Shown here piece after piece: positions 3,191 to 35,570 of a stretch of 41,580 bases of DNA. Within the stretch, counting starts at the first letter, position 1. Every line of letters starts with the position of its first letter. Under the pieces are notes generated by a model that ran no database searches, was not told where the DNA came from, and saw only the letters and a list, made by a program, of their open reading frames with translations. A program made the translations under genes and the position numbers. The stretch lies in IMG/VR virus record IMGVR_UViG_2565956608_000009; one strand, 5' to 3'. The stretch is from a virus. Taxonomy: Duplodnaviria > Heunggongvirae > Uroviricota > Caudoviricetes.

Positions 3191-3205
3191 TTACCCTATA
3201 GGTGA
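3191..3205. promoter_or_regulatory. Operator-like palindrome TTACC-ctata-GGTGA upstream of the acetyltransferase gene
   Basis: One mismatch to TTACC-N5-GGTAA; 37 nt upstream of ATG 3242 in the divergent holin/acetyltransferase intergenic region. Confidence 0.4.
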
Positions 3206-3241: not shown

Positions 3242-5182
3242 ATGTCTTATTTAAAATACAGAACAGATATTGATGGGCTGCGAGCTATTGCGGTTTTGCT
3301 GGTCGTGCTGTACCACGCAAACTTTCCTATTCATGGTGGTTTTATTGGTGTAGATGTTTTTTTCGTCATATCAGGATATCTCATTACCAACATCATATAT
3401 AAAGAGACTAAAAGAAATATTTTTTCATTCCTTAATTTTTACAAACGTCGAATAAAGCGATTGCTCCCAGCTTTTGCTTTTCTTCTTTTATTTTTATTTG
3501 TTTACTGCAAATTATATTTGATGCCAGATGAACTTATATCATTCTCTAAAAGTGCGGTATACGCTCTTCTTGGCATAAGCAATTTCTATTTTTTTAGTAG
3601 CACAGGTTACTTTAACTCAACCTCTTATGAACCGCTTTTACACACATGGTCGCTTTCCGTTGAAGAGCAGTTCTACATTGTATGGCCTTTCATCGTTTTC
3701 ATGCTCGTTCGGAACTCAGGGACAAAAAAAGCAATAATAATATCCTCATTACTATTTATTGTATTCCTTGGTATTTCACAGTATGGAGCGGTTAATTATA
3801 AAACAGCAGCGTATCTCCTACTGCCTTTTAGGTTCTTTGAGTTGCTCTCAGGTGCCCTACTTGCTATCTATAAAGATTCAATAACAAAACATCTGCGCCA
3901 CGGTTCTGTAATTTCACTGGTCGGCGTAATGCTGATTGTGTTGAGTTCATTATTTATAAATTCTAACACGCCATTTCCTGGGTTCACTGTTTTGCCTACA
4001 TGTTTAGGCGCTGTAATGCTTATTGCTGCAGGTGACTCATCCAAAAACTTCATTTCTAAAGTGCTGTCTTTAACTCCAGTTGTTTATGTAGGAAGAATTT
4101 CCTACTCTCTTTATTTATGGCACTGGCCTGTACTGATTCTTGCTGAATACAGGGGTATCGATCTTACGGCCTTAAATGCGACGGCGCTCATACTTATCGC
4201 ATTCATCATGGCAAGCATAAGCTATCACTTCGTTGAAAAGCCATTTAGGAAGGATTCGCTGCAATATTTCAGGACTGCATTTATAACCATCTACTTGATA
4301 CCATTAATAGTATCCGCTGCCTATGCAGCGTACATTTTAAAAAATGATGGTTTTCGCGCCAAAAGTTCAGAGTTAGTATCTGAATTAGAAGAGAGAAACG
4401 CGACAAATATTATGCGCCCACAGTGTATTGATAAATTATTTATCGGTAATGTAAATGACTGTCATCTTGGCGTTAATAAAGGCGAAGTAGATGGCGTGCT
4501 TCTTGGTGACTCCTTTGGTAATGCATATGCTTACTTTATTGATGAACTTGCGAAAGATGCTGGAATATCAATAACAGATACTACATATAGCTCAACACCT
4601 GTAATATCAGGAATTTATGTGCAGGATATCAGAAATAAGATATCTGACATAGATGCTAACCTGATAATGACATATACAAAAAACAGGCTGGAGTATGCAG
4701 CAAAACAAAAGTTCGCGATAATTTCCGTTTTTTGGGATCAGTACGGGCCACAAAATAATTACTTCCGTATCTTCGATAAAAACGGTGACGTATCGGAGAA
4801 TGCTTACCAGTTGCAATCTGAAGCAATAAAATATCTGCTGTCCAATGGCGTGAAAGTTTACATCATTGCAAGACCTTACCAGTCTATTGGCCCTGCTGCG
4901 ATAAACAAACTGCGCCAAATTAAGCTACGGCATGGGGATGTAACAACTGAAAAATATGAATACGGCGTAAAGAAAGATGATCGGATAGAATACAAGTTAA
5001 AGCAGGAGTTCCCTCAGATAACGCTAATCGATCCTAACGATGTACTTTGCCACAAAGGGGAATGTGATGCCATCGTGGATGGGAAGATCATTTTCAGAAC
5101 TGATGGTTCACACCTGAATGCTGTTGGAGCAAAAAAAATCGGGGAAGAGTATTTGAAAAACTACGCAAACCCATTTCGATAA
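3242..5182 (+). CDS. O-antigen acetyltransferase (acyltransferase-3 membrane domain plus C-terminal SGNH-like domain)
   Basis: 646 aa; N-terminus DGLRAIAVLLVVLYH...GGFIGVDVFFVISGYLIT typical of acyltransferase family 3 (OafA/Oac type); about 10 TM helices then a soluble domain; AT-rich relative to neighbours. Confidence 0.85.
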   Translation: MSYLKYRTDIDGLRAIAVLLVVLYHANFPIHGGFIGVDVFFVISGYLITNIIYKETKRNIFSFLNFYKRRIKRLLPAFAFLLLFLFVYCKLYLMPDELISFSKSAVYALLGISNFYFFSSTGYFNSTSYEPLLHTWSLSVEEQFYIVWPFIVFMLVRNSGTKKAIIISSLLFIVFLGISQYGAVNYKTAAYLLLPFRFFELLSGALLAIYKDSITKHLRHGSVISLVGVMLIVLSSLFINSNTPFPGFTVLPTCLGAVMLIAAGDSSKNFISKVLSLTPVVYVGRISYSLYLWHWPVLILAEYRGIDLTALNATALILIAFIMASISYHFVEKPFRKDSLQYFRTAFITIYLIPLIVSAAYAAYILKNDGFRAKSSELVSELEERNATNIMRPQCIDKLFIGNVNDCHLGVNKGEVDGVLLGDSFGNAYAYFIDELAKDAGISITDTTYSSTPVISGIYVQDIRNKISDIDANLIMTYTKNRLEYAAKQKFAIISVFWDQYGPQNNYFRIFDKNGDVSENAYQLQSEAIKYLLSNGVKVYIIARPYQSIGPAAINKLRQIKLRHGDVTTEKYEYGVKKDDRIEYKLKQEFPQITLIDPNDVLCHKGECDAIVDGKIIFRTDGSHLNAVGAKKIGEEYLKNYANPFR

Positions 5183-5212: not shown

Positions 5213-7444
5213 TTAAGACTTCTTAAGGTACGACCATGTAACAGTGGTCGTACCGCTGCTGGTAATAGATATATCCCTTTCTGATACGCTTGCTGTGAGG
5301 AACACCGCAGTCTTCAGCGGCTGGATCATTGCTGTCGTACCATCATAAATTACCAGGAATGAAATCGCGTAGTTTGCACCTCCGCCAGAAACCCACACGT
5401 TAACATCATAAACTCCCTCAGAGTTTGGCAAAGTAAAGAGCACGGACGCTACGTTAGCGTTGACCGATTTAGTACCATTGTCGGTATAGACCGTGGGCAC
5501 CTGAAGCCCATTGGCATTTTTATTTTCTACATACCCACCAGCAATAACGCCTGACGTGATGCAGTTCGTGTAGTTAACGTTGCCGGTGCTCACAGTAGAG
5601 ATGGTTGGAGTTCCTCCGGCCGGAGCCTGGAACCGGCAGTTATCTGCATCAACCTGCGAGGTTACATCTGTGTGGATGAATGATGGATAGCCGGCCATTC
5701 CTTCAAAAGCGATCGGCGTACCATCGAAGCTATCTTTGCAGTTCAGCATCTTCACGCGAGATCCATTTATCGCGCGGTAAAAATCAACGATACCATTAGA
5801 ACCACCGAAAGATGTTTTCAACTTGTTGCCAGAACCAACTGCCCCGACTATCGAAACGGTTGAATTATCGAATGTCATAAACGCCACCTCAAGTGCTGAG
5901 TTGTTGTTTATAACGTTCGCCTCACCATCAAAACCGGAGATAAGAAATCCGTGACAATTCGAAAGGTAAATAGCAGACTGACCGATAGACGCGTTGGAGT
6001 TTACTGTCATCTTATCTGCTGCGCAGTTCGTCATCTGCCCTGAAAGGAGGTTTGTTAAATACCACGCGCATACGCCACCCATTACATAGCAGGACTCATA
6101 ATGGATCGTCGTGCCGGTGTTTTTGTAGAAACCACCGCGACTGCGACGCACCCATACATGCTCAAGCCTAGACATATAATTTCCAGAGTCGTCATATACT
6201 CCCCACCATGCCCCATCTATATCGACGTTTTTAATCCTTATCAAACCCGGCGATGTCTCACCACCATTTATAAGAATGCCAATTTTACCGTCGTTTGTGG
6301 CAGCATCTGTTGGATAGTCAATTCCATTCTGATCATAGAAAATATATAAATTCTCAATATTTCCTGAAGCAAAAGACTCTCCATAATGTAAGCACGCTTT
6401 ATTTCCAATTACGGAAATAAAAGTCCCTGATCTATTTATTATGTTATTACACTCACCGTATACAGTTGCAGATGTATTCATCTTAATAGTGTCATTAACA
6501 AAATATGCATTTCCACCTGGAATAAACACATTTCGTCCAGTGTTAATAGCTGCCTGTATTCCTGCGTAGTCAAAAGACTGGGTAAGCGATGTCACAAATG
6601 GATATACCATTTGTGCTGCTGTCAATGTTGAAAACACTTCGCTTAACTGATGAAGTTTTCCATCGCCTGTAGCACCAAAATCTTTTGCACTAATAAAATC
6701 GCTGTTTTTATCATGCTGTGTACGAATAAATGAACTAATGAAAGGTTGCTTCACCGAGATCAGAGCATCGCCTTTCCCGTCCTCGCCGCTGGCCAACTGG
6801 TTGAATACGTCAGCCGCCGTTCCTGAAGGCACAGGGAACGGAACGGGCTTACCGTTGGCGATGCCGATTATGCTTCCTTCAAGTTGAGCGAGAGGTGGCA
6901 GCGGATCGATATAAGAATCAGGAACACGGATTGTATGGTCGATATTCGATAAAACCGTACTGTCCACATAATTCTTTGTGGATGCATCCTGCGGGTTTAC
7001 CGGGTCTTTCAGGTTTCGAATATAGTTGTTCAGCGCGTTATAATAATTTGCCACGAATGACGGCTTGCGCAGCGCCAAGCTAAACCAACTTCGAACCTGC
7101 TGGATCAGCATCGTTAGCTTATCAAAAGCATCCTCATGCACTTCTGCAAAGAACTTCCCCTGATTACGCAAATCAGTTTCCTGCGTAACCGGGAGCTCTC
7201 GTGATATAGAAATCTGGTAACCGTTAGCTAACGCCTTCGACAGAATTACATTACCGCCGTTATATCCACCAGCCCCAGTGACAGTGTAATCAGTATCCAG
7301 AGCCAGCACAGCGATATTTTCGTCAAGGTCAACCACCTGCACTACCAGATCAGATTCCTTGAAAACCCTAAAGGTATAAGGGAATGAAGTCGTAACGCCA
7401 TTGCCTGTGTATTCGTTGTGGTCAACTTCGGTTGAGACCGTCAT
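5213..7444 (-). CDS. Tailspike / tail fibre protein
   Basis: 743 aa; N-terminus NEYTGNGVTTSFPYTF resembles the conserved particle-binding domain of podovirus tail fibres and spikes; long beta-rich repetitive body; SD GGAG before ATG 7442-7444. Confidence 0.8.
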   Translation of the reverse strand: MTVSTEVDHNEYTGNGVTTSFPYTFRVFKESDLVVQVVDLDENIAVLALDTDYTVTGAGGYNGGNVILSKALANGYQISISRELPVTQETDLRNQGKFFAEVHEDAFDKLTMLIQQVRSWFSLALRKPSFVANYYNALNNYIRNLKDPVNPQDASTKNYVDSTVLSNIDHTIRVPDSYIDPLPPLAQLEGSIIGIANGKPVPFPVPSGTAADVFNQLASGEDGKGDALISVKQPFISSFIRTQHDKNSDFISAKDFGATGDGKLHQLSEVFSTLTAAQMVYPFVTSLTQSFDYAGIQAAINTGRNVFIPGGNAYFVNDTIKMNTSATVYGECNNIINRSGTFISVIGNKACLHYGESFASGNIENLYIFYDQNGIDYPTDAATNDGKIGILINGGETSPGLIRIKNVDIDGAWWGVYDDSGNYMSRLEHVWVRRSRGGFYKNTGTTIHYESCYVMGGVCAWYLTNLLSGQMTNCAADKMTVNSNASIGQSAIYLSNCHGFLISGFDGEANVINNNSALEVAFMTFDNSTVSIVGAVGSGNKLKTSFGGSNGIVDFYRAINGSRVKMLNCKDSFDGTPIAFEGMAGYPSFIHTDVTSQVDADNCRFQAPAGGTPTISTVSTGNVNYTNCITSGVIAGGYVENKNANGLQVPTVYTDNGTKSVNANVASVLFTLPNSEGVYDVNVWVSGGGANYAISFLVIYDGTTAMIQPLKTAVFLTASVSERDISITSSGTTTVTWSYLKKS

Positions 7445-7548
7445 GTTAAATCTCCAGATAGTCGCAGCACCCGTTGCGCCGCATATCTGGTTATTCTATT
7501 ACCTGAAAAACCATATATGGATGGAAAGAGTGTTAATGTGAGCAGATA

Positions 7549-7563
7549 TTACCTTTCAGGTGA
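7549..7563. promoter_or_regulatory. Operator-like palindrome TTACC-tttca-GGTGA
   Basis: One mismatch to the recurring TTACC-N5-GGTAA motif; intergenic between tailspike start and the 7640 gene. Confidence 0.4.
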
Positions 7564-7600
7564 TTCGCAAAACGTGCTGGATAGCAAACAAATTATTTGC

Positions 7601-7620
7601 TACTGTATAAACATACAGTT
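7601..7620. promoter_or_regulatory. LexA (SOS) box
   Basis: TACTGTATAAACATACAGTT: CTGT-N8-ACAG with the flanking TA of the consensus TACTGT(AT)4ACAGTA; 20 nt upstream of ATG 7640. Confidence 0.65.
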
Positions 7621-7639
7621 ATTGCATGGAGAAGATAAG

Positions 7640-7897
7640 ATGCAGCAGTATCACTATCCACTGGAAGAGGGATTTACCGAAAGGATTCACACGCCGGGAG
7701 GCGTCAGGTCACTGGTGGAAGGATCGCACTTGATGAAATTACTCCGGGATCTCGATAAGGATGGATTTAATGTCGATGGCCCACTTGCCGAACTGACTGC
7801 ACTGATTAACTACGTCACCAGCTCACAGATGTCTATGCAGGATCTGCAAACACATCTCGACTATTGTGCCGAACAACTACGAAAACAAACCACATAA
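7640..7897 (+). CDS. Small antirepressor-like protein (standalone homologue of the C-terminal domain of the Bro-N antirepressor at 9045-9755)
   Basis: 85 aa from ATG 7640 (SD GGAGAAG at 7628-7634); ORF track start 7517 would span the LexA box; clear similarity to the C-terminus of the 9045 protein (LMKLLRDLDKDGFNVDGPLAELT / LMNLLNQLQDDGHDVSGAAAELT; DLQTHLDY / DIQTHAEY). Confidence 0.55.
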   Translation: MQQYHYPLEEGFTERIHTPGGVRSLVEGSHLMKLLRDLDKDGFNVDGPLAELTALINYVTSSQMSMQDLQTHLDYCAEQLRKQTT

Positions 7898-7903
7898 AGA
7901 AAA

Positions 7904-7919
7904 GGCCGCAAGAGCGGCC
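7904..7919. terminator. Bidirectional terminator hairpin between convergent genes
   Basis: GGCCGC-aaga-GCGGCC; T-rich on the minus side, moderately T-rich on the plus side. Confidence 0.55.
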
Positions 7920-8647
7920 TATCGTTTCGCTTTGTGCTCGTCCCAGCACGTTTTGCACCATGCCATTAAGCCATCCGCATTTTGATTATTAGGGTAAAAG
8001 CTGGTTCGTTTTCTGCGGACATTACAAATTGGGCACCACTTCATATGACGTGTATTCTTTGGGCCATCTAGACACCTTGCACACCACTTAGTCAATCCAT
8101 CTGGATTTTTTGACGATTTCCTGAATTTTTCATATGGAAGGTTTATTCTGCATCGCAAACACTGCTTGCGGGCACTTGAAACTTCGTTAGCTGATTCTTC
8201 TTTTGACGGCGATACAGAAGGTATTCTTGCTGGCTCTGATACTGCCTGAGGTGCTTTTTTAGGTGACTGAGACGATACGTCATCACCAGGGAATCTTCCA
8301 TGATATGCCGGACACGTTGACACTCCAGGTGGAAGCTCTGCTGTAAATGGCTTTGGCTGAATCAGTTGCCTCTCTTTTGCTAACTCCTGCTGTTTATAAT
8401 ATGTCTGGATTACCGCGCTATCATAAGCAGGAGGTACGGAAATATTAGGCGCATTATCTCCCGTTTTTTGAAACTGAGTGGAGGTGTGTTCTATCACCTG
8501 TGTACGATTAATCGTTATCTCCCCATCTTCAGTCTTTATCGTTTTGTTACGATTAACGACCGTACGATCAGAGATCTTAGTCTTGTTCTGGTGAAGGACA
8601 TAAATAATCACCGCAACCACACCAACAACTATCCAGAAAACTTCCAT
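7919..8647 (-). CDS. Membrane-anchored protein with C-terminal double zinc-ribbon (four CxxC pairs), function unknown
   Basis: 242 aa; one N-terminal TM helix (FWIVVGVVAVIIYVL) followed by basic residues; C-terminus CLRC...CARC...CPIC...CKTC; SD GAGGAA before ATG 8645-8647. Confidence 0.6.
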   Translation of the reverse strand: MEVFWIVVGVVAVIIYVLHQNKTKISDRTVVNRNKTIKTEDGEITINRTQVIEHTSTQFQKTGDNAPNISVPPAYDSAVIQTYYKQQELAKERQLIQPKPFTAELPPGVSTCPAYHGRFPGDDVSSQSPKKAPQAVSEPARIPSVSPSKEESANEVSSARKQCLRCRINLPYEKFRKSSKNPDGLTKWCARCLDGPKNTRHMKWCPICNVRRKRTSFYPNNQNADGLMAWCKTCWDEHKAKR

Positions 8648-8760: not shown

Positions 8761-8775
8761 TTACCTTTGCGGTAA
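8761..8775. promoter_or_regulatory. Operator palindrome TTACC-tttgc-GGTAA
   Basis: Perfect copy at the head of the long leader upstream of the Bro-N antirepressor gene. Confidence 0.55.
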
Positions 8776-8810
8776 ATTTACATCGCACTCCTCTTGTGCC
8801 ATAGTAATCG

Positions 8811-8888
8811 GGCACTGGCAAAATCCAGTGCCGGGATTGGCGTCCCGGGTTACTAAGTGGCGCATACCACGCCAGACGTGGTTTTTTT
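8811..8888 (+). ncRNA. Structured leader / candidate small RNA or attenuator ending in an intrinsic terminator
   Basis: Three consecutive hairpins (GCACTGG/CCAGTGC 8812-8831; CCGGGA/TCCCGG 8831-8848; CCACG/CGTGG 8867-8881) followed by T7 run 8882-8888; located between operator 8761-8775 and the antirepressor SD at 9032. Confidence 0.35.
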
Positions 8889-9044
8889 ATGCGTTAAGCA
8901 CAGCTATATCCGAATTATGGTGGGCTGGGCAGGGGTCCGAAAGGACGCCGGTACCACTTAGGCCGGTACGCCAACCTTGTCCAGTTCACCACCAGTAATT
9001 GGCGTTGCGGTGGTGATTAAAATCACTAAGTGGAGATAACCACC

Positions 9045-9755
9045 ATGGCTAATGCTCAAACTTCCATCTTCAAATTTGAATCTGTTAACCCTATCCGTTC
9101 CATCATTATCGATGGCCAACCATGGTTTGTAGCCCAAGACGTTTGTAGTGCGCTGCGTATCCAAAACGTCACCCAAGCACTTGAAAAACTGGATGATGAT
9201 GAAAGGTCTATGTTCAACATAGGGCATGAACATCGTGCAATTTTTGACAGCCGAGTAAAAGAGATCAACATCATCTCCGAGTCAGGCCTCTACACACTGA
9301 TCCTCAGATGCCGCGACGCAGTGACACCAGGCACTATCCCCTACCGCTTTCGTAAATGGGTTACAGGTGAGGTTCTTCCTCAGATCCGCCGCACCGGAAG
9401 TTACATTAAAAACTCGCTCCCGCAGGAAGAACGCATAAAGATGGTTGCCGACCAGGTAGCCAACGCCACGGCGTCAGCAGTAATGCAGGCGATGAAGATA
9501 GAGAACAAAACCTACAGTGCCCCACTGAAGCCCGGCTACCGCAGTCTGATTCACTCGCCGTCTGGTGTTCTCGGCCTGACGGAGAACTCACTGCTGATGA
9601 ATCTGCTGAACCAGTTGCAGGACGACGGGCATGATGTATCGGGCGCGGCAGCGGAGCTGACCACCATGTTCTGCTACATCGTCGGTGTGAGCAAGTGCCT
9701 GCGTGATATCCAGACCCACGCGGAGTATATCAACGACAAAGCAGGGTTCTTCTGA
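9045..9755 (+). CDS. Antirepressor, Bro-N (KilA-N-type) N-terminal domain with Ant-type C-terminal domain
   Basis: Start ATG 9045 with SD GGAGA (track start is GTG 9030); N-terminal motif FVAQDVCSALRIQNVTQALEKLDDDE...YTLILR and VLPQIRRTGSY typical of Bro-N antirepressors. Confidence 0.8.
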   Translation: MANAQTSIFKFESVNPIRSIIIDGQPWFVAQDVCSALRIQNVTQALEKLDDDERSMFNIGHEHRAIFDSRVKEINIISESGLYTLILRCRDAVTPGTIPYRFRKWVTGEVLPQIRRTGSYIKNSLPQEERIKMVADQVANATASAVMQAMKIENKTYSAPLKPGYRSLIHSPSGVLGLTENSLLMNLLNQLQDDGHDVSGAAAELTTMFCYIVGVSKCLRDIQTHAEYINDKAGFF

Positions 9756-9827: not shown

Positions 9828-9842
9828 TTACCTCAAGGGTAA
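9828..9842. promoter_or_regulatory. Operator palindrome TTACC-tcaag-GGTAA overlapping a candidate promoter
   Basis: Perfect copy; preceded by -35-like TTGCAG (9800-9805) and -10-like TACTAT (9823-9828). Confidence 0.55.
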
Positions 9843-9901: not shown

Positions 9902-10534
9902 ATGAGAACAAATACAACAAGAAAAGCGATGCCATACATTATCCCAGAAGCAGATTTCGATAGAAAACTGAACATGTCTGAGAAGAACACTAGTCACACC
10001 GAAAGCTACTTAGCGAAAGGTGTGGTTGATTTCGTTCTTCCGGGATTCACAACACCTTATGGTTATCGCCTTGTAAAATCTTGTAATGGCGATCATTACA
10101 GAATGATTACTACCAGCGATACTCCAGAAACGGTGTATGCGGTTAAGTTAATCTTTCGGGAAGATATCGTCGAAGCCAAAAGAACATGTACGCAGATCAT
10201 GGTATGGCGTACGCCTAATGTTATTCATGACCGTGCTGTTCATGGTTTGCCTCAGATTTTTTTTCAGTTCTTCCTAGAGCAATATGCGATCGTTGTATCT
10301 GATGAGCAACAAACAATCGATGGGAGAAGATTCTGGGAAAGAATGATTTCTTGGGCTATAAACACCCCAGGATATAATGTATACGTTTCAGATGGCTCTG
10401 AAGAAGATAGACCTCTTAGCTTCATGACATCATGGGATGATTTCTATAGCCAGTGGGCTGATTTCTGTTGGGGCAGTGATAAAGATGTGCATACCCACAG
10501 ACTACTGGTTATAAGCAAAGATAAACTGCATTAA
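9902..10534 (+). CDS. Hypothetical protein (moron), no recognisable domain
   Basis: 210 aa; strong SD GGGAGGA at 9891-9897; own operator/promoter upstream and terminator downstream; starts with AGA codons. Confidence 0.6.
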   Translation: MRTNTTRKAMPYIIPEADFDRKLNMSEKNTSHTESYLAKGVVDFVLPGFTTPYGYRLVKSCNGDHYRMITTSDTPETVYAVKLIFREDIVEAKRTCTQIMVWRTPNVIHDRAVHGLPQIFFQFFLEQYAIVVSDEQQTIDGRRFWERMISWAINTPGYNVYVSDGSEEDRPLSFMTSWDDFYSQWADFCWGSDKDVHTHRLLVISKDKLH

Positions 10535-18324: not shown

Positions 18325-18788
18325 TATTTTCTCTCCATGTGAAATCTGTGGAAATTAAGACCAAGAGCACCATAAGGCGCGGCTTCTTCAAGCCTGAATC
18401 CAAGCCAGTGGAGCCATGCTTTGGCAACATGGTTTCGCTCGTCGACGTAGTTTTCCAGGCGCGGATAAACTGCCAGCATCTGCCGCAATACAGGGTGGCA
18501 GTGGCGAAGAAATGTCTTCTGATATTTTTCAATACGGCTGGTCCCGACCAGCCAGGGCGTACCATTGCCACCGATCATTGACGCCGGAGATACACCAAAC
18601 ATGGTTACCAGTTCTCCGTTCGCGAACCCTGACCAGGCCATAGTCGCAGTGCGCAGACCAACACGCAGCGCATCTTCGGTAGTCATCAGCGATACCGCAT
18701 ACAGTTCGTCAATATCAGCCTGACGAACATCCGGCAAAATCATCTGAAGATGCTCTTCGGTTGCGGGAATAATTTGAACACCAATCAT
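18324..18788 (-). CDS. Hypothetical late protein
   Basis: 154 aa; start overlaps the stop of the upstream gene (ATGA). Confidence 0.5.
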   Translation of the reverse strand: MIGVQIIPATEEHLQMILPDVRQADIDELYAVSLMTTEDALRVGLRTATMAWSGFANGELVTMFGVSPASMIGGNGTPWLVGTSRIEKYQKTFLRHCHPVLRQMLAVYPRLENYVDERNHVAKAWLHWLGFRLEEAAPYGALGLNFHRFHMERK

Positions 18789-21259
18789 CAGAATCCCCCA
18801 ACAGTAAGGCGAGGAATAACGGCAAGAACAGACAGCGGCAACGGATCAAGCTGACGGATTTTTACACGTCCGTTTTTGCCCCAGTTACTGTCCAGTTTCA
18901 CTTCTACTTTTCCGGTAGCATCATCAACAGGATCATCGTAGAACTCGAATTCACGCTGTGGATATTCGTACCATTTACCGCCGGGCGTAGTCGCCCAGAT
19001 GCCGCGGCTGGCATTCACAACCAGAGTAACGGATGGGATCACCTGTTTTTTGTCCAGCAGCGTTTCCTGTCCGTTAATGTTGATATCCAGTGTTTCGAAT
19101 TCAGCAGTTATTGGCAGGCCGATGTGCACTACAGCCCCCGGAGATTCCAGCGTGACGGCACCTCCGGAAACCACTTTCTGTGGTTCCACGTTCGCATCAG
19201 AGAGAATGTTTACGGTCTGGCCTTCAAGATGAGACAGGCCTCCAAATGTCCGGCGCGCCATCTGCCAGTTCGTGGTGGCCACATTCCTGAGGGATGGCGG
19301 GACGTTCCTGTTAGCACGAACCACTACAGCGGTATTGCTGGTTACAGAAATAATGTCGCAACGTAATTCTTTTGACACTTCATCGCCAGTATCAGGATCA
19401 GTTCCGGTATAAGGGAATTGTAGTTGCGCACCGACATCACTACTGGTGAAGTACGCACCACCAGAAATACTGATTGTATATTCCACGCGGTAATCCCATT
19501 CACCAGAACCACCAGTGATGGTCATCGTTCTGTCAGACGTATTTCTTCCATCATAGCTAAGGCCAGAATCAACAAAGAAAGCATCTTCATCGCTGGTAAA
19601 TAAACGGCTGGACAGCCGCTCGATGTATCTCACTGTTTGCCCGTTAACGGTTCGGTTAACGACGAAATACACCGCATCTTCATTTCCTTCGCTGATACTG
19701 CATGTGCTTTCATATTTTCCGGTACTGGACTGTGGTGCCCATGCAAAAACCTGTTGATCACGCAAATAGGTCATCACCAGTAATTTACCGTCATCACGAA
19801 TGCAGAAGGCGCTGGAGTAAGGGACAATAGAGAAGCACCAGTCAACAATGCTGTGCTTCTGAAAAAGATGATTGGCAAGGATGGTCAGGTCGTTCCCCTG
19901 ATAGCCGTCAACATCGAATGAGTAGGCCAGATCACGGACAACACTGCCTTTCTCCTGGACGAACAGAGCAATATTCGCCACGGCAATTGGTGGGACATTG
20001 CTCGAGCCATTTGATCCCTGAGAGCTGAATGCAAATGATGATGGGGTTAACACTTTGTTCTGGTCGCCGGTGATGACGTACTCACCTCCGGAAGTCAGCG
20101 CCACCAGCGAACCAACATCAATCAGGTGACGGATCTCATTAACCTGACGCCCGGCATAGGTGTAGATAATTCTGTCGTCATCCTGCGTAGGATTGCTTTT
20201 GCCAAAATCCTTATAATCCCCAGTACGGCTGGCTCAGATAGTCTGAGGGAACGCAGTCGATGCGGCGAAGTAAAGACGTTGTTGATAATAAACAACAGTG
20301 CCAGGATAACCATTAACACTGTTCCAGGCATATTTAGCCCATTTATAGCTGGCATTATCCTCGCCAACTACCTGCGAAGGGATATAGGAAATCACCTCGG
20401 CAGTTGCAGTAGTTCCATTTGCAGCAGTGATACGGGCAATGCCAAAACCACTGTGCAGATACTCCCACTCAATGCCAGTATCATCATCACCGGAGCCGCC
20501 CCAGCCATCCCATGATGTGCCTTCTGTATGCGAAGGGCGCAAAGTGCCTGTTTTGCCTGCTGTAACGGCGCGATAGTAGTTACTGTCTGCACGGCGAATA
20601 TCGCTAATCGACGTACTCTTACTGGTTTCCCATACCGGCACTGAATCCACTGCAGGCTGTTCCAGATAGAACAATTTGCCTACCTGCTCCGCGCCAAAAA
20701 TAGAGGCGCTTGCCGTTAACGTAATTGTCCCAGTGCTGGCGCTGGCATAAACCGTCACTGACTCGTCGATATTGATATCTTCAAATGGTCCGTTCTTCGT
20801 TACCACATCAACCAGTTGCCAGTTGTCATGCGCATAGCGACGCAACTCTTTCGGCGGGTATGCCGGATGAACAAGCGTAAGCACGTCGGCGCTTTGCGTG
20901 AATTTAATTCGGAACAGATCGGCTTCAGTATATGGCGTGGCAATTTCATAAATAACATTGCTGCTGTTCAGCACCAACGCACCATCTTTGATAACGCGCA
21001 TGTACTGGTGTCCGAACTCCAGAGCGTAGGTCTGAACCGTCGAGAACTGGAACGGGATCAGGCGGCATTTCCGATTTGGGTATTTGGCGGCACCGACAAA
21101 ACGCGTACCAGGTCGATTCTCAACGCCGCCATACTGCCGCACGATAAAGTTATCGCACTTGCGCAATGCCACCTGGTACTTCGCCATGTCGATACGACCG
21201 TACAACGACGGTCCAATCTCACCACCGGCAAAGCTGGGCTGGATCCAACTGATAGCCAT
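18788..21259 (-). pseudogene. T7 gp12-like tail nozzle gene interrupted by a single in-frame TGA (20234-20236)
   Basis: ORFs 20234-21259 (341 aa) and 18788-20104 (438 aa) are in the same frame; the 43 codons between them are open and the track start at 20104 is a GTG inside continuous coding; combined about 822 codons, the size expected for a nozzle protein. Confidence 0.6.
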
Positions 21260-23021: not shown

Positions 23022-23072
23022 CTTCTTTCTCCATTAGTGGGTCTGTTACGACCCACAGGTTAATAACAGGCG

Positions 23073-27033: not shown

Positions 27034-27070
27034 TTGACATTTAACGCACGAATTATTACCTTTCAGGTAA
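27034..27070 (+). promoter_or_regulatory. Candidate promoter (-35 TTGACA) with operator palindrome TTACC-tttca-GGTAA (27056-27070)
   Basis: Perfect -35 hexamer 27034-27039; perfect operator copy overlapping the expected -10/+1 region; directed toward the tRNA. Confidence 0.5.
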
Positions 27071-27392: not shown

Positions 27393-27469
27393 GTGGCATT
27401 AGCTCAGTTGGACAGAGCAACCGCCTTCTAAGCGGTCGGTCGCAGGTTCGAATCCTGCATGCCACGCCA
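27393..27469 (+). tRNA. tRNA-Arg (anticodon UCU), phage-encoded
   Basis: 77 nt with CCA; 7-bp acceptor stem GTGGCAT/ATGCCAC, D-arm GCTC/GAGC, anticodon stem ACCGC/GCGGT with loop CTTCTAA, T-arm GCAGG-TTCGAAT-CCTGC; internal to the prophage, so not the integration site. Confidence 0.85.
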
Positions 27470-34697: not shown

Positions 34698-34764
34698 AGC
34701 TATTGCCTGATATTTATTTCAGATAATAAATATTCACCCATAAGGTAACAAAAATCAAGGATAG

Positions 34765-34796
34765 TTACCTATGAGGTGCATTTACCTGTTGGGTAA
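34765..34796. promoter_or_regulatory. Tandem operators in the divergent switch region (34765-34779 TTACC-tatga-GGTGC; 34782-34796 TTACC-tgttg-GGTAA)
   Basis: Two adjacent copies separated by 2 bp between the Cro-like and repressor genes; an AT-rich inverted repeat ATATTTATT/AATAAATAT lies at 34710-34733. Confidence 0.55.
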
Positions 34797-34851: not shown

Positions 34852-35436
34852 ATGAAAAGTATCCAGGACGTCCGCAGGCAAAATCTCAACGACTTGATCG
34901 ACCGTGAATTCAATGGTGTTCAGACGCGGATGGCAGAAAAACTTGGAACTCAGGCAAATCTGGTAAACCGCTGGGCTCTTGGCAAGAAGGTTATCGGCGA
35001 CCAGGTTGCGCGAAAAATTGAAGCTGCCGCCAATAAACCCCGTAACTGGCTTGATATCGATCGCTCGCTTTCTCAGGAAGGTTTTCAGCCTGTCGGCCCA
35101 AGCGACATTGGTCAGCTGGCGGCTCACAACCTGGAACGCTGGATGAGCGAAAGCCGCGACCTTTCAACACAGGGAAAACTTCACCGCGCATCCGGCGTCG
35201 CCCAGGTGACAATCAGCCGCCTGTTAAACAATGAGGTCAGCGTTTCCATTTCCACCCTGGAGAATGTTGCATCTGCATTCGGGCGTCACGGATATGAACT
35301 ACTGATTCATCCGCATGACCCTGCAACTATCAACTATGACCGCTCGCGCTACGCATTGTTACCTGAAACAGAGAAGGCAAAGATCGAAAGTTACATTGAA
35401 TTTGTCATCAACCAGAACGAAAAAAACAAACAATAA
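34852..35436 (+). CDS. Prophage repressor candidate: tandem helix-turn-helix protein without a peptidase domain
   Basis: 194 aa; two XRE-like HTH segments (QTRMAEKLGTQANLVNRWALGKK and LHRASGVAQVTISRLLNNEVSVSISTLENVASAFG); no S24 Ala-Gly/Ser-Lys motif; followed by a strong terminator. Confidence 0.6.
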   Translation: MKSIQDVRRQNLNDLIDREFNGVQTRMAEKLGTQANLVNRWALGKKVIGDQVARKIEAAANKPRNWLDIDRSLSQEGFQPVGPSDIGQLAAHNLERWMSESRDLSTQGKLHRASGVAQVTISRLLNNEVSVSISTLENVASAFGRHGYELLIHPHDPATINYDRSRYALLPETEKAKIESYIEFVINQNEKNKQ

Positions 35437-35493: not shown

Positions 35494-35570
35494 TTACCTA
35501 ACGGGTAATTTTTTTAACTCATATCTATTGACATCAAACCAGATACGCATAATTATTACCTCAACGGTAA
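35494..35570 (+). promoter_or_regulatory. Promoter region of the plus-strand early operon: operators 35494-35508 and 35556-35570 flanking -35 TTGACA (35527-35532)
   Basis: Both copies perfect (TTACC-taacg-GGTAA, TTACC-tcaac-GGTAA); the second overlaps the expected -10/+1 region. Confidence 0.55.

Follow-up and report, generated by a model that had tools for sequence, protein, structure and literature searches.

A putative SPC32H-type LexA-Ant-Rep antirepression switch in a phiV10-like prophage of Escherichia coli

Introduction

The locus studied here, a small gene that begins just downstream of a LexA-like palindrome in an Escherichia coli prophage, raises the question of whether such a prophage responds to DNA damage through an antirepressor released by the host LexA protein rather than through the cleavage of its own repressor. 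An antirepressor, Tum of coliphage 186, was reportedly described by Shearwin et al. in 1998. In several Salmonella prophages, according to Kim and Ryu (2013, J Virol 87:11775), an antirepressor is made once LexA has cleaved itself, and its contact with the lytic repressor inactivates the latter. For phage SPC32H, the account of Kim et al. (2016, PNAS 113:E2480) describes a repressor, Rep, that binds DNA as a tetramer and a tetrameric Ant protein that binds two Rep dimers and breaks this tetramer.

We have analyzed the whole stretch of DNA of IMG/VR record IMGVR_UViG_2565956608_000009, 41,580 nucleotides long, which will be called the window. We consider it very probable (roughly 85%) that it carries the E. 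coli Uetakevirus counterpart of the ant-rep antirepression switch, orthologous to that of SPC32H. The features on which the argument is based are collected in Table 1.

Table 1. Control elements, genes and RNAs of the putative ant-rep switch and of the second antirepressor cassette in the window.
Feature	Position	Strand	Basis
Putative Rep operator-type palindrome TTACCTTTCAGGTGA (family TTACC-N5-GGTAA)	7549..7563		52 nt upstream of the LexA box start
LexA (SOS) box TACTGTATAAACATACAGTT	7601..7620	+	heterology index and conservation in relatives
Ribosome-binding site GGAGAAG	7628..7634	+	read from sequence; GGAG (7628-7631) 8 nt before ATG
ant, 85-aa antirepressor, SPC32H Ant orthologue	7640..7897	+	5D50 chain E match, synteny, PHROG 450
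GC-rich hairpin terminator between ant and convergent gene 7919-8647	7903..7920		terminator scan
Putative operator palindrome (8761-8775) abutting promoter-like TTTACA-17-CATAGT (8777-8805)	8761..8805	+	pattern scan
isrK-like RNA (8812-8888) and C4 antisense RNA (8913-8996) with complementary target sites	8812..8996	+	Rfam
Second antirepressor, Bro-N plus Ant-like C-terminal domain	9045..9755 (start 9030/9045)	+	Pfam, 5D50, PHROG
Three clustered putative operator palindromes between rep and divergent gene	34734..34796		pattern scan
rep, 194-aa non-cleavable prophage repressor	34852..35436	+	5D50 chain A/5D4Z matches, no S24 domain
Two putative operator palindromes flanking TTGACA-N17-CATAAT promoter downstream of rep	35494..35570		pattern scan

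Results and discussion

The prophage and its relatives

The window is a phiV10/epsilon15-like prophage of an E. coli chromosome, and its relatives are members of the genus Uetakevirus or group with it. Over its whole length the window shares 99.94% identity with part of the E. coli SCU-116 chromosome, from which it differs by a single 24-bp indel. The host genes yfgH and yfgI (1-1071) at one end and a tyrosine integrase gene (40330-41580) at the other indicate that the window holds essentially the whole integrated prophage.

In a megablast search, the identity of the ant region was 95-97% for TL-2011b, phiV10, ZX5 and other E. coli phages, and 77-78% for Salmonella and Enterobacter relatives. 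Searches with the ant and rep proteins widened the set of relatives to epsilon15 and SPC32H. Ant was found in 35 records and full-length Rep in 36, the two proteins co-occurring in nearly every Uetakevirus record, and the ant module is present in 531 of the 5426 complete E. coli genomes (about 10%).

The LexA box upstream of ant

The palindrome that precedes ant has the structure CTGT-N8-ACAG and departs from the 20-nt LexA consensus TACTGTATATATATACAGTA by three mismatches. No other site in the 41.6-kb window matches with three mismatches or fewer, and no such match arose in 100 shuffles. Its quality was further evaluated with a heterology index (HI) matrix made from 30 known E. coli LexA sites. 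The HI of 1.88 is better than that of 28 of the 30 training sites in a leave-one-out comparison, only those of umuDC and dinD being better, and it was reached by none of 200 random windows, whose best value was 4.38 and whose median best was 11.1. The near-consensus LexA box that the preliminary description had placed just upstream of ATG 7640 is thus borne out both by its mismatches and by weight-matrix scoring, as the sole strong site in the window and with a gap of 19 nt to the start codon. The second-best matrix site, located at 4062-4081 within the acyltransferase gene, has an HI of 9.41 and was discarded as being at chance level, as were two further CTGT-N8-ACAG matches at 23043 and 27585.

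The control region was then compared by aligning the tailspike-ant intergenic region of ten phages and by scoring nine further genomic loci. All 18 enterobacterial relatives, a count that includes the window, have kept the box, its spacing to the ATG and the palindrome upstream of it. In 13 of them, which come from E. coli, Salmonella, Enterobacter, Citrobacter, Pseudocitrobacter, Scandinavium, Buttiauxella and Erwinia, the LexA box is strong (HI 1.1-4.4), and the gap between it and the ant start is 19-22 nt in twelve and 32 nt in the thirteenth, that of Buttiauxella. A weaker box (HI 6-9), with ATGT as left half and the right half kept, occurs in four Klebsiella loci and in Superficieibacter, and its scores are still inside the range of the training sites. 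The palindrome starts 51-52 nt upstream of the box in the relatives (49 nt in Buttiauxella). In SPC32H the LexA box, TACTGTATGTTTATACAGTG, occupies the same alignment position as the box of the window.

These data also bear on a different explanation, i.e., that the palindrome at 7601-7620 is a chance sequence or a relic, or serves the divergent tailspike gene, and that ant is run by the Rep-type operator at 7549-7563. This operator does lie in the same intergenic region as the box, the left half-site is degraded in the Klebsiella and Superficieibacter relatives, and no promoter was located near the box: a consensus scan of positions 7350-8000 for sigma-70 promoters with at least 9 of 12 matches gave none, and a manual search for -35 and -10 elements around the box gave no candidate conserved across the relatives. 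Nevertheless, the HI is at the level of the best chromosomal SOS boxes and beyond all the random windows, the distance between box and ant is fixed while the flanking bases vary, the box is 157 nt away from the tailspike start, and the published account of the orthologue credits it with LexA control. We thus regard this explanation as very improbable and, by analogy with the orthologue, would expect ant of the window to be controlled by LexA.

The ant gene and its product

The ant ORF starts at ATG 7640, ends at TAA 7895-7897 and encodes a protein of 85 aa. This product matches chain E ("Anti-repressor protein") of PDB entry 5D50 with an E value of 5e-48, residues 2-85 being aligned, and shares 90.6% identity with Ant of SPC32H, whose gene is annotated ant in the SPC32H record. 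The profiles that it matches are PHROG 450, PHROG 15539 and PHROG 1760 only, with no Pfam family. The gene adjoins the divergently transcribed tailspike gene, the same place as that of SPC32H ant and epsilon15 gp19, and lies outside the immunity region (at 7.6 kb vs 34.9 kb for rep, 27 kb apart). The epsilon15 record annotates a rho-independent terminator at the position equivalent to the hairpin found downstream of ant.

A word-indexed protein search for wider Ant relatives gave only stand-alone proteins of about 85-86 aa, N-extended calls or partial calls, all from Enterobacterales. A genome scan for Ant added one doubtful match with 30% identity in Nitrosomonas, where neither a box nor an operator accompanies it. 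RefSeq labels ant as "hypothetical protein", and so do all the E. coli phage records in which the gene is annotated.

Public gene calls often extend ant to 126-127 aa from position 7517, through the LexA box and the operator, and the database clusters P0005 and P0024-P0029 consist of calls of this gene. If the true gene were the 126-aa ORF that starts at ATG 7517, the LexA box would be intragenic. Versions of 126-127 aa are indeed made by gene callers, e.g., in the cluster represented by P0005, which has 833 members. However, the stretch 7517-7639 contains indels that would shift a reading frame, their lengths not being divisible by three, and conservation within it follows the DNA sites, i.e., the operator and the box, and not the codons. 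In addition, GGAG is placed 8 nt before ATG 7640 and is invariant in the ten-phage alignment, the crystallised Ant of SPC32H has 86 aa, and the PGAP call is 7640-7897. The longer ORF was rejected on these grounds, its probability being negligible.

The repressor and its putative operators

The protein encoded by rep has an HTH DNA-binding domain at its N-terminus, an HTH_3-like domain in the middle and a helix at its C-terminus. Its residues 1-190 match chain A ("Repressor") of 5D50 (42% identity, E 4e-42), and residues 89-190 also match 5D4Z, a C-terminal fragment (E 4e-20). The homologous gene of SPC32H is annotated rep. Ant and Rep thus match the two chains of the same entry, which means that the pair to which the preliminary description had come by reasoning consists of homologues of co-crystallised proteins.

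Pfam detected HTH_3 at residues 106-147 of Rep and a weak HTH-like match at residues 21-61, but no match to Peptidase_S24, the domain expected of an autocleaving repressor of the CI/LexA type. The PGAP annotation of the near-identical SCU-116 prophage contains no S24-type protein and no peptidase-type repressor. The lack of an S24 domain in Rep suggests that the SOS signal would arrive via the host LexA and an antirepressor and not via self-cleavage. A repressor with two HTH domains and no cleavable peptidase domain had been proposed for this gene; the absence of the peptidase domain stands, but the second HTH-like domain would be a dimerisation domain and not a DNA-binding one, judging from SPC32H. 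In the published description of SPC32H, the N-terminal domain of Rep binds DNA, the middle domain serves dimerisation and a C-terminal element is responsible for tetramerisation and for the contact with Ant, and F187 and F190 are given as aromatic residues of the tetramer interface. These two residues align with Y181 and F184 of the window Rep.

The window Rep is 100% identical to the repressor of phiV10 and ZX5. In the ZX5 study, overexpression of this repressor abolished free ZX5 phage.

The palindrome TTACC-N5-GGTAA occurs at 16 sites in the window, almost always intergenic; in the pattern scan, 39 strand matches were counted where 2.7 would be expected by chance. The 15-nt palindromes start at positions 2949, 3191, 7549, 8668, 8761, 9828, 27056, 30203, 30221, 32413, 32475, 34397, 34734, 34782, 35494 and 35556. 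SPC32H and epsilon15 show the same arrangement around rep, and the epsilon15 GenBank record annotates the motif as "protein_bind repressor, lysogeny", including the copy upstream of gp19, the ant orthologue. On the basis of this annotation and of the pattern in both phages, we read the palindrome as the probable operator of Rep. Its half-sites are identical in the window phage and SPC32H despite the 42% identity of the Rep proteins. The dispersion of the palindromes suggests that Rep may act at many promoters beyond the immunity region. The palindrome at 3191 sits between the lysis genes and the acyltransferase gene. The copy at 7549-7563 may serve ant, the tailspike gene that diverges from it, or both.

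Proposed mechanism of induction and comparison with known systems

The mechanism that we propose can be described as follows. In the lysogen, host LexA bound to its box would keep ant silent, and a Rep tetramer bound to the TTACC-N5-GGTAA operators would keep the lytic promoters off. After DNA damage, RecA would become active, LexA would cleave itself and ant would be transcribed. Ant would then bind the C-terminal part of Rep and turn the DNA-binding tetramer into inactive dimers, Rep itself remaining uncleaved, and the loss of Rep from its operators would derepress the lytic genes. A second protein, in which an Ant-like domain is fused to Bro-N and which may be controlled by a Rep operator and by C4, would probably reinforce derepression afterwards. 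The binding mode of Ant and Rep in this scheme is the one described for SPC32H, and since the Rep of the window is only 42% identical to SPC32H Rep, we extrapolate when we assume that the E. coli Ant would act on it in the same way.

A small antirepressor derepressed by LexA and directed against a non-cleavable repressor, as the preliminary description had predicted, follows the same logic as the published SPC32H system and agrees with the 5D50 matches and the lack of an S24 domain. The arrangement can no longer be called unusual, as it was there, given that the Rep-Ant system of SPC32H had already been published. The feature is real, and the system is already known: it is very probably the LexA-Ant-Rep switch of the SPC32H type in an E. 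coli orthologue that had remained unannotated.

SPC32H is, like the phage of the window, a Uetakevirus with an Ant of 85-86 aa (about 90% identity), a full-length Rep homologue without peptidase, ant next to the tailspike gene, a LexA box 19-22 nt before ant, and TTACC-N5-GGTAA palindromes around rep and upstream of ant. The two differ in that their Rep proteins share 42% identity, in that the host here is E. coli, and in that SPC32H is without the Bro-N-fused Ant-domain protein and the isrK/C4 cassette that are present in the window phage.

By analogy, the systems of Tum of 186 and of GfoA/GfhA of the Gifsy prophages are comparable as well, with a non-cleavable repressor and a small LexA-controlled antirepressor encoded outside the immunity region (Lemire et al. 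2011, PMC3121763). However, no sequence relationship of Ant to Tum or GfoA was found, Ant being set apart by its profile matches (PHROG, 5D50) and not by direct alignment, and the repressor families and phage types are different. The Gifsy antirepressors are most likely dimers (PMC3121763), whereas SPC32H Ant is described as a tetramer. With lambda CI, P22 C2 and the repressors of the LexA type, the proposed switch would have in common that prophage induction depends on the SOS response, but the window Rep is without the S24 peptidase domain.

A second antirepressor with a Bro-N domain

The other antirepressor of the window contains a Bro-N domain (Pfam E 1e-19), and its residues 155-231 match chain E of 5D50 (E 2e-13) and PHROG 450 (E 6e-36). 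Ant aligns to residues 160-237 of this protein with 40% identity (E 2e-15), and no other Ant homologue was found in the window, in agreement with the earlier statement that the 85-aa product is homologous only to the C-terminal domain of the Bro-N protein. A third copy of the Ant domain, which is present in TL-2011b and HEMP4, is absent from the window. The earlier interpretation of Ant as a truncated paralogue of the Bro-N antirepressor, in contrast, has to be turned around. Ant accompanies Rep nearly everywhere and the fusion is missing from four phages (SPC32H, epsilon15, SPN1S and BUCT554), which indicates that Ant is the conserved core gene and that the Bro-N fusion is an accessory form, probably a derived one.

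Pattern and matrix scans of the window located no LexA box upstream of the Bro-N gene. The control elements found in this place are of a different kind. The palindrome at 8761-8775 abuts the -35 element of a promoter-like sequence, and the start predicted from the latter, at about position 8812, is the 5' end of isrK. A distance of 48-51 nt between this putative operator and the isrK 5' end downstream of it is shared by five phages, which include TL-2011b, phiV10, Tyrion and a Klebsiella pneumoniae prophage. Rfam assigns 67.7 bits to isrK (gathering score 50) and 66 bits to C4 (gathering score 45). Of the C4 loop sequences, CCACTTAG is complementary to 8853-8860 and ACGCCAA to 8837-8843, both within isrK, and they can pair likewise with 9026-9033 and 8999-9005, respectively. 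The target at 9026-9033 abuts the Shine-Dalgarno sequence GGAG of the Bro-N gene at 9032-9035. The isrK and C4 pair is found in TL-2011b, phiV10, Tyrion and the K. pneumoniae prophage, and it is absent from SPC32H. From this layout, we infer that the Bro-N gene may be controlled by a Rep operator and by C4.

A similar layout is known from immI of P1 and P7, with c4 antisense RNA over ant, and from isrK-orf45-anrP of Gifsy-1 (Hershko-Shalev et al. 2016, PMC4825925), the likeness concerning the Bro-N cassette only. As in those systems, isrK and C4 lie directly upstream of the gene and the C4 targets are duplicated, one copy being next to the ribosome-binding site. The promoter-like sequence adjoins a putative operator of the phage repressor. 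The effector is different here, as it is a domain resembling 5D50 chain E, i.e., Ant, fused to Bro-N. That an antirepressor can be under the control of the phage repressor and not of LexA has a precedent in FsoA of Fels-1 (PMC3121763).

The Bro-N protein is 80% identical to ORF4 of ZX5, whose overexpression lowered the lysogen count about 1000-fold in the ZX5 study. The Bro-N gene is followed by a gene for a protein of 210 aa (9902-10534, plus strand; PHROG 1349), which has an operator palindrome of its own upstream, at 9828-9842.

Conservation of Ant and Rep and the target of Ant

Between the E. coli and Salmonella phages, the identity of Ant is 87-91%, as opposed to 42% for Rep. When Rep is compared by regions with that of SPC32H, the DNA-binding domain (54% identity) and the C-terminal segment (47%) are better conserved than the middle domain (32%) and the linker (27%). 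No such gap between the two proteins exists in Tyrion (Rep 78%, Ant 84.5%) or in the Klebsiella phages (Rep 45%, Ant 62-65%). Three explanations of the mismatch can be considered: rep modules could have been exchanged while Ant tolerates different Rep proteins, Ant could recognise only the conserved C-terminal segment of Rep, or Ant could be constrained by something else.

The mismatch also invites the idea that the LexA-controlled ant is mainly directed against another target, such as the repressors of other prophages or some other partner, and that the Bro-N protein with its Ant-like domain is the real inducer. The far better conservation of Ant than of Rep across these phages would fit, as would the action of Gifsy and Fels antirepressors on non-cognate repressors (PMC3121763) and the effect of Bro-N protein overexpression on the lysogen count of ZX5, a phage with the same Rep. 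Against it, almost all records that contain one of the two families, Ant or Rep, contain the other as well, and SPC32H, epsilon15 and BUCT554, which have no Bro-N paralogue, have nevertheless kept ant and the LexA box. Moreover, the best-conserved parts of Rep are precisely the DNA-binding domain and the C-terminal segment for Ant binding and tetramerisation. We consider this idea unlikely and keep the cognate Rep as the preferred target of Ant.

With Rep as that target, the two antirepressors might form a circuit of two stages, in which Ant, gated by LexA, would start induction and the Bro-N fusion, gated by the Rep operator, C4 and isrK, would lock it in, with an Ant able to act across Rep types. 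This suggestion is a tentative one. It would concern the Uetakeviruses of E. coli, Enterobacter and Klebsiella, in which one Rep-binding domain would be used twice, and the Bro-N fusion would be released only once Rep starts to fail. The conservation of Ant at about 90% against 42% for Rep raises the possibility that one Ant might inactivate several types of Rep and cross-induce co-resident prophages of the genus.

The value of these results lies mainly in the annotation, and nothing in them is new at the level of mechanism. Ant was overlooked in the only published functional test in a phage with the same Rep, that of ZX5, where the Bro-N protein was used instead. The recognition of Ant predicts that these prophages, among them the O-antigen-modifying phiV10-like phages of O157 and of other pathogenic E. 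coli, are induced by the LexA route and not by repressor cleavage. The possible two-stage arrangement and the mismatch between the conservation of Ant and Rep provide modest but testable leads.

Other features of the prophage

Some additional features of the window deserve to be mentioned. The convergent gene 7919-8647 (minus strand), which is inserted between ant and the isrK/C4 cassette, encodes a protein of 242 aa (PHROG 6762) with a hydrophobic N-terminus and cysteine-rich, zinc-ribbon-like repeats at the C-terminus, and this product shows weak matches to the endonuclease VII and Lar-like families. In TL-2011b the equivalent stretch bears no annotation other than a misc_feature, and phiV10 lacks it. 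A tRNA-Arg gene (anticodon TCT) is located at 27393-27469 (plus strand), near the operator palindrome at 27056.

Finally, a structural gene of 824 codons (18788-21259, minus strand), at the position of gp12 in epsilon15, carries an in-frame stop at codon 342. The prophage may be incapable of producing complete virions even after induction. The counterpart of this gene in the SCU-116 prophage is a pseudogene in RefSeq.
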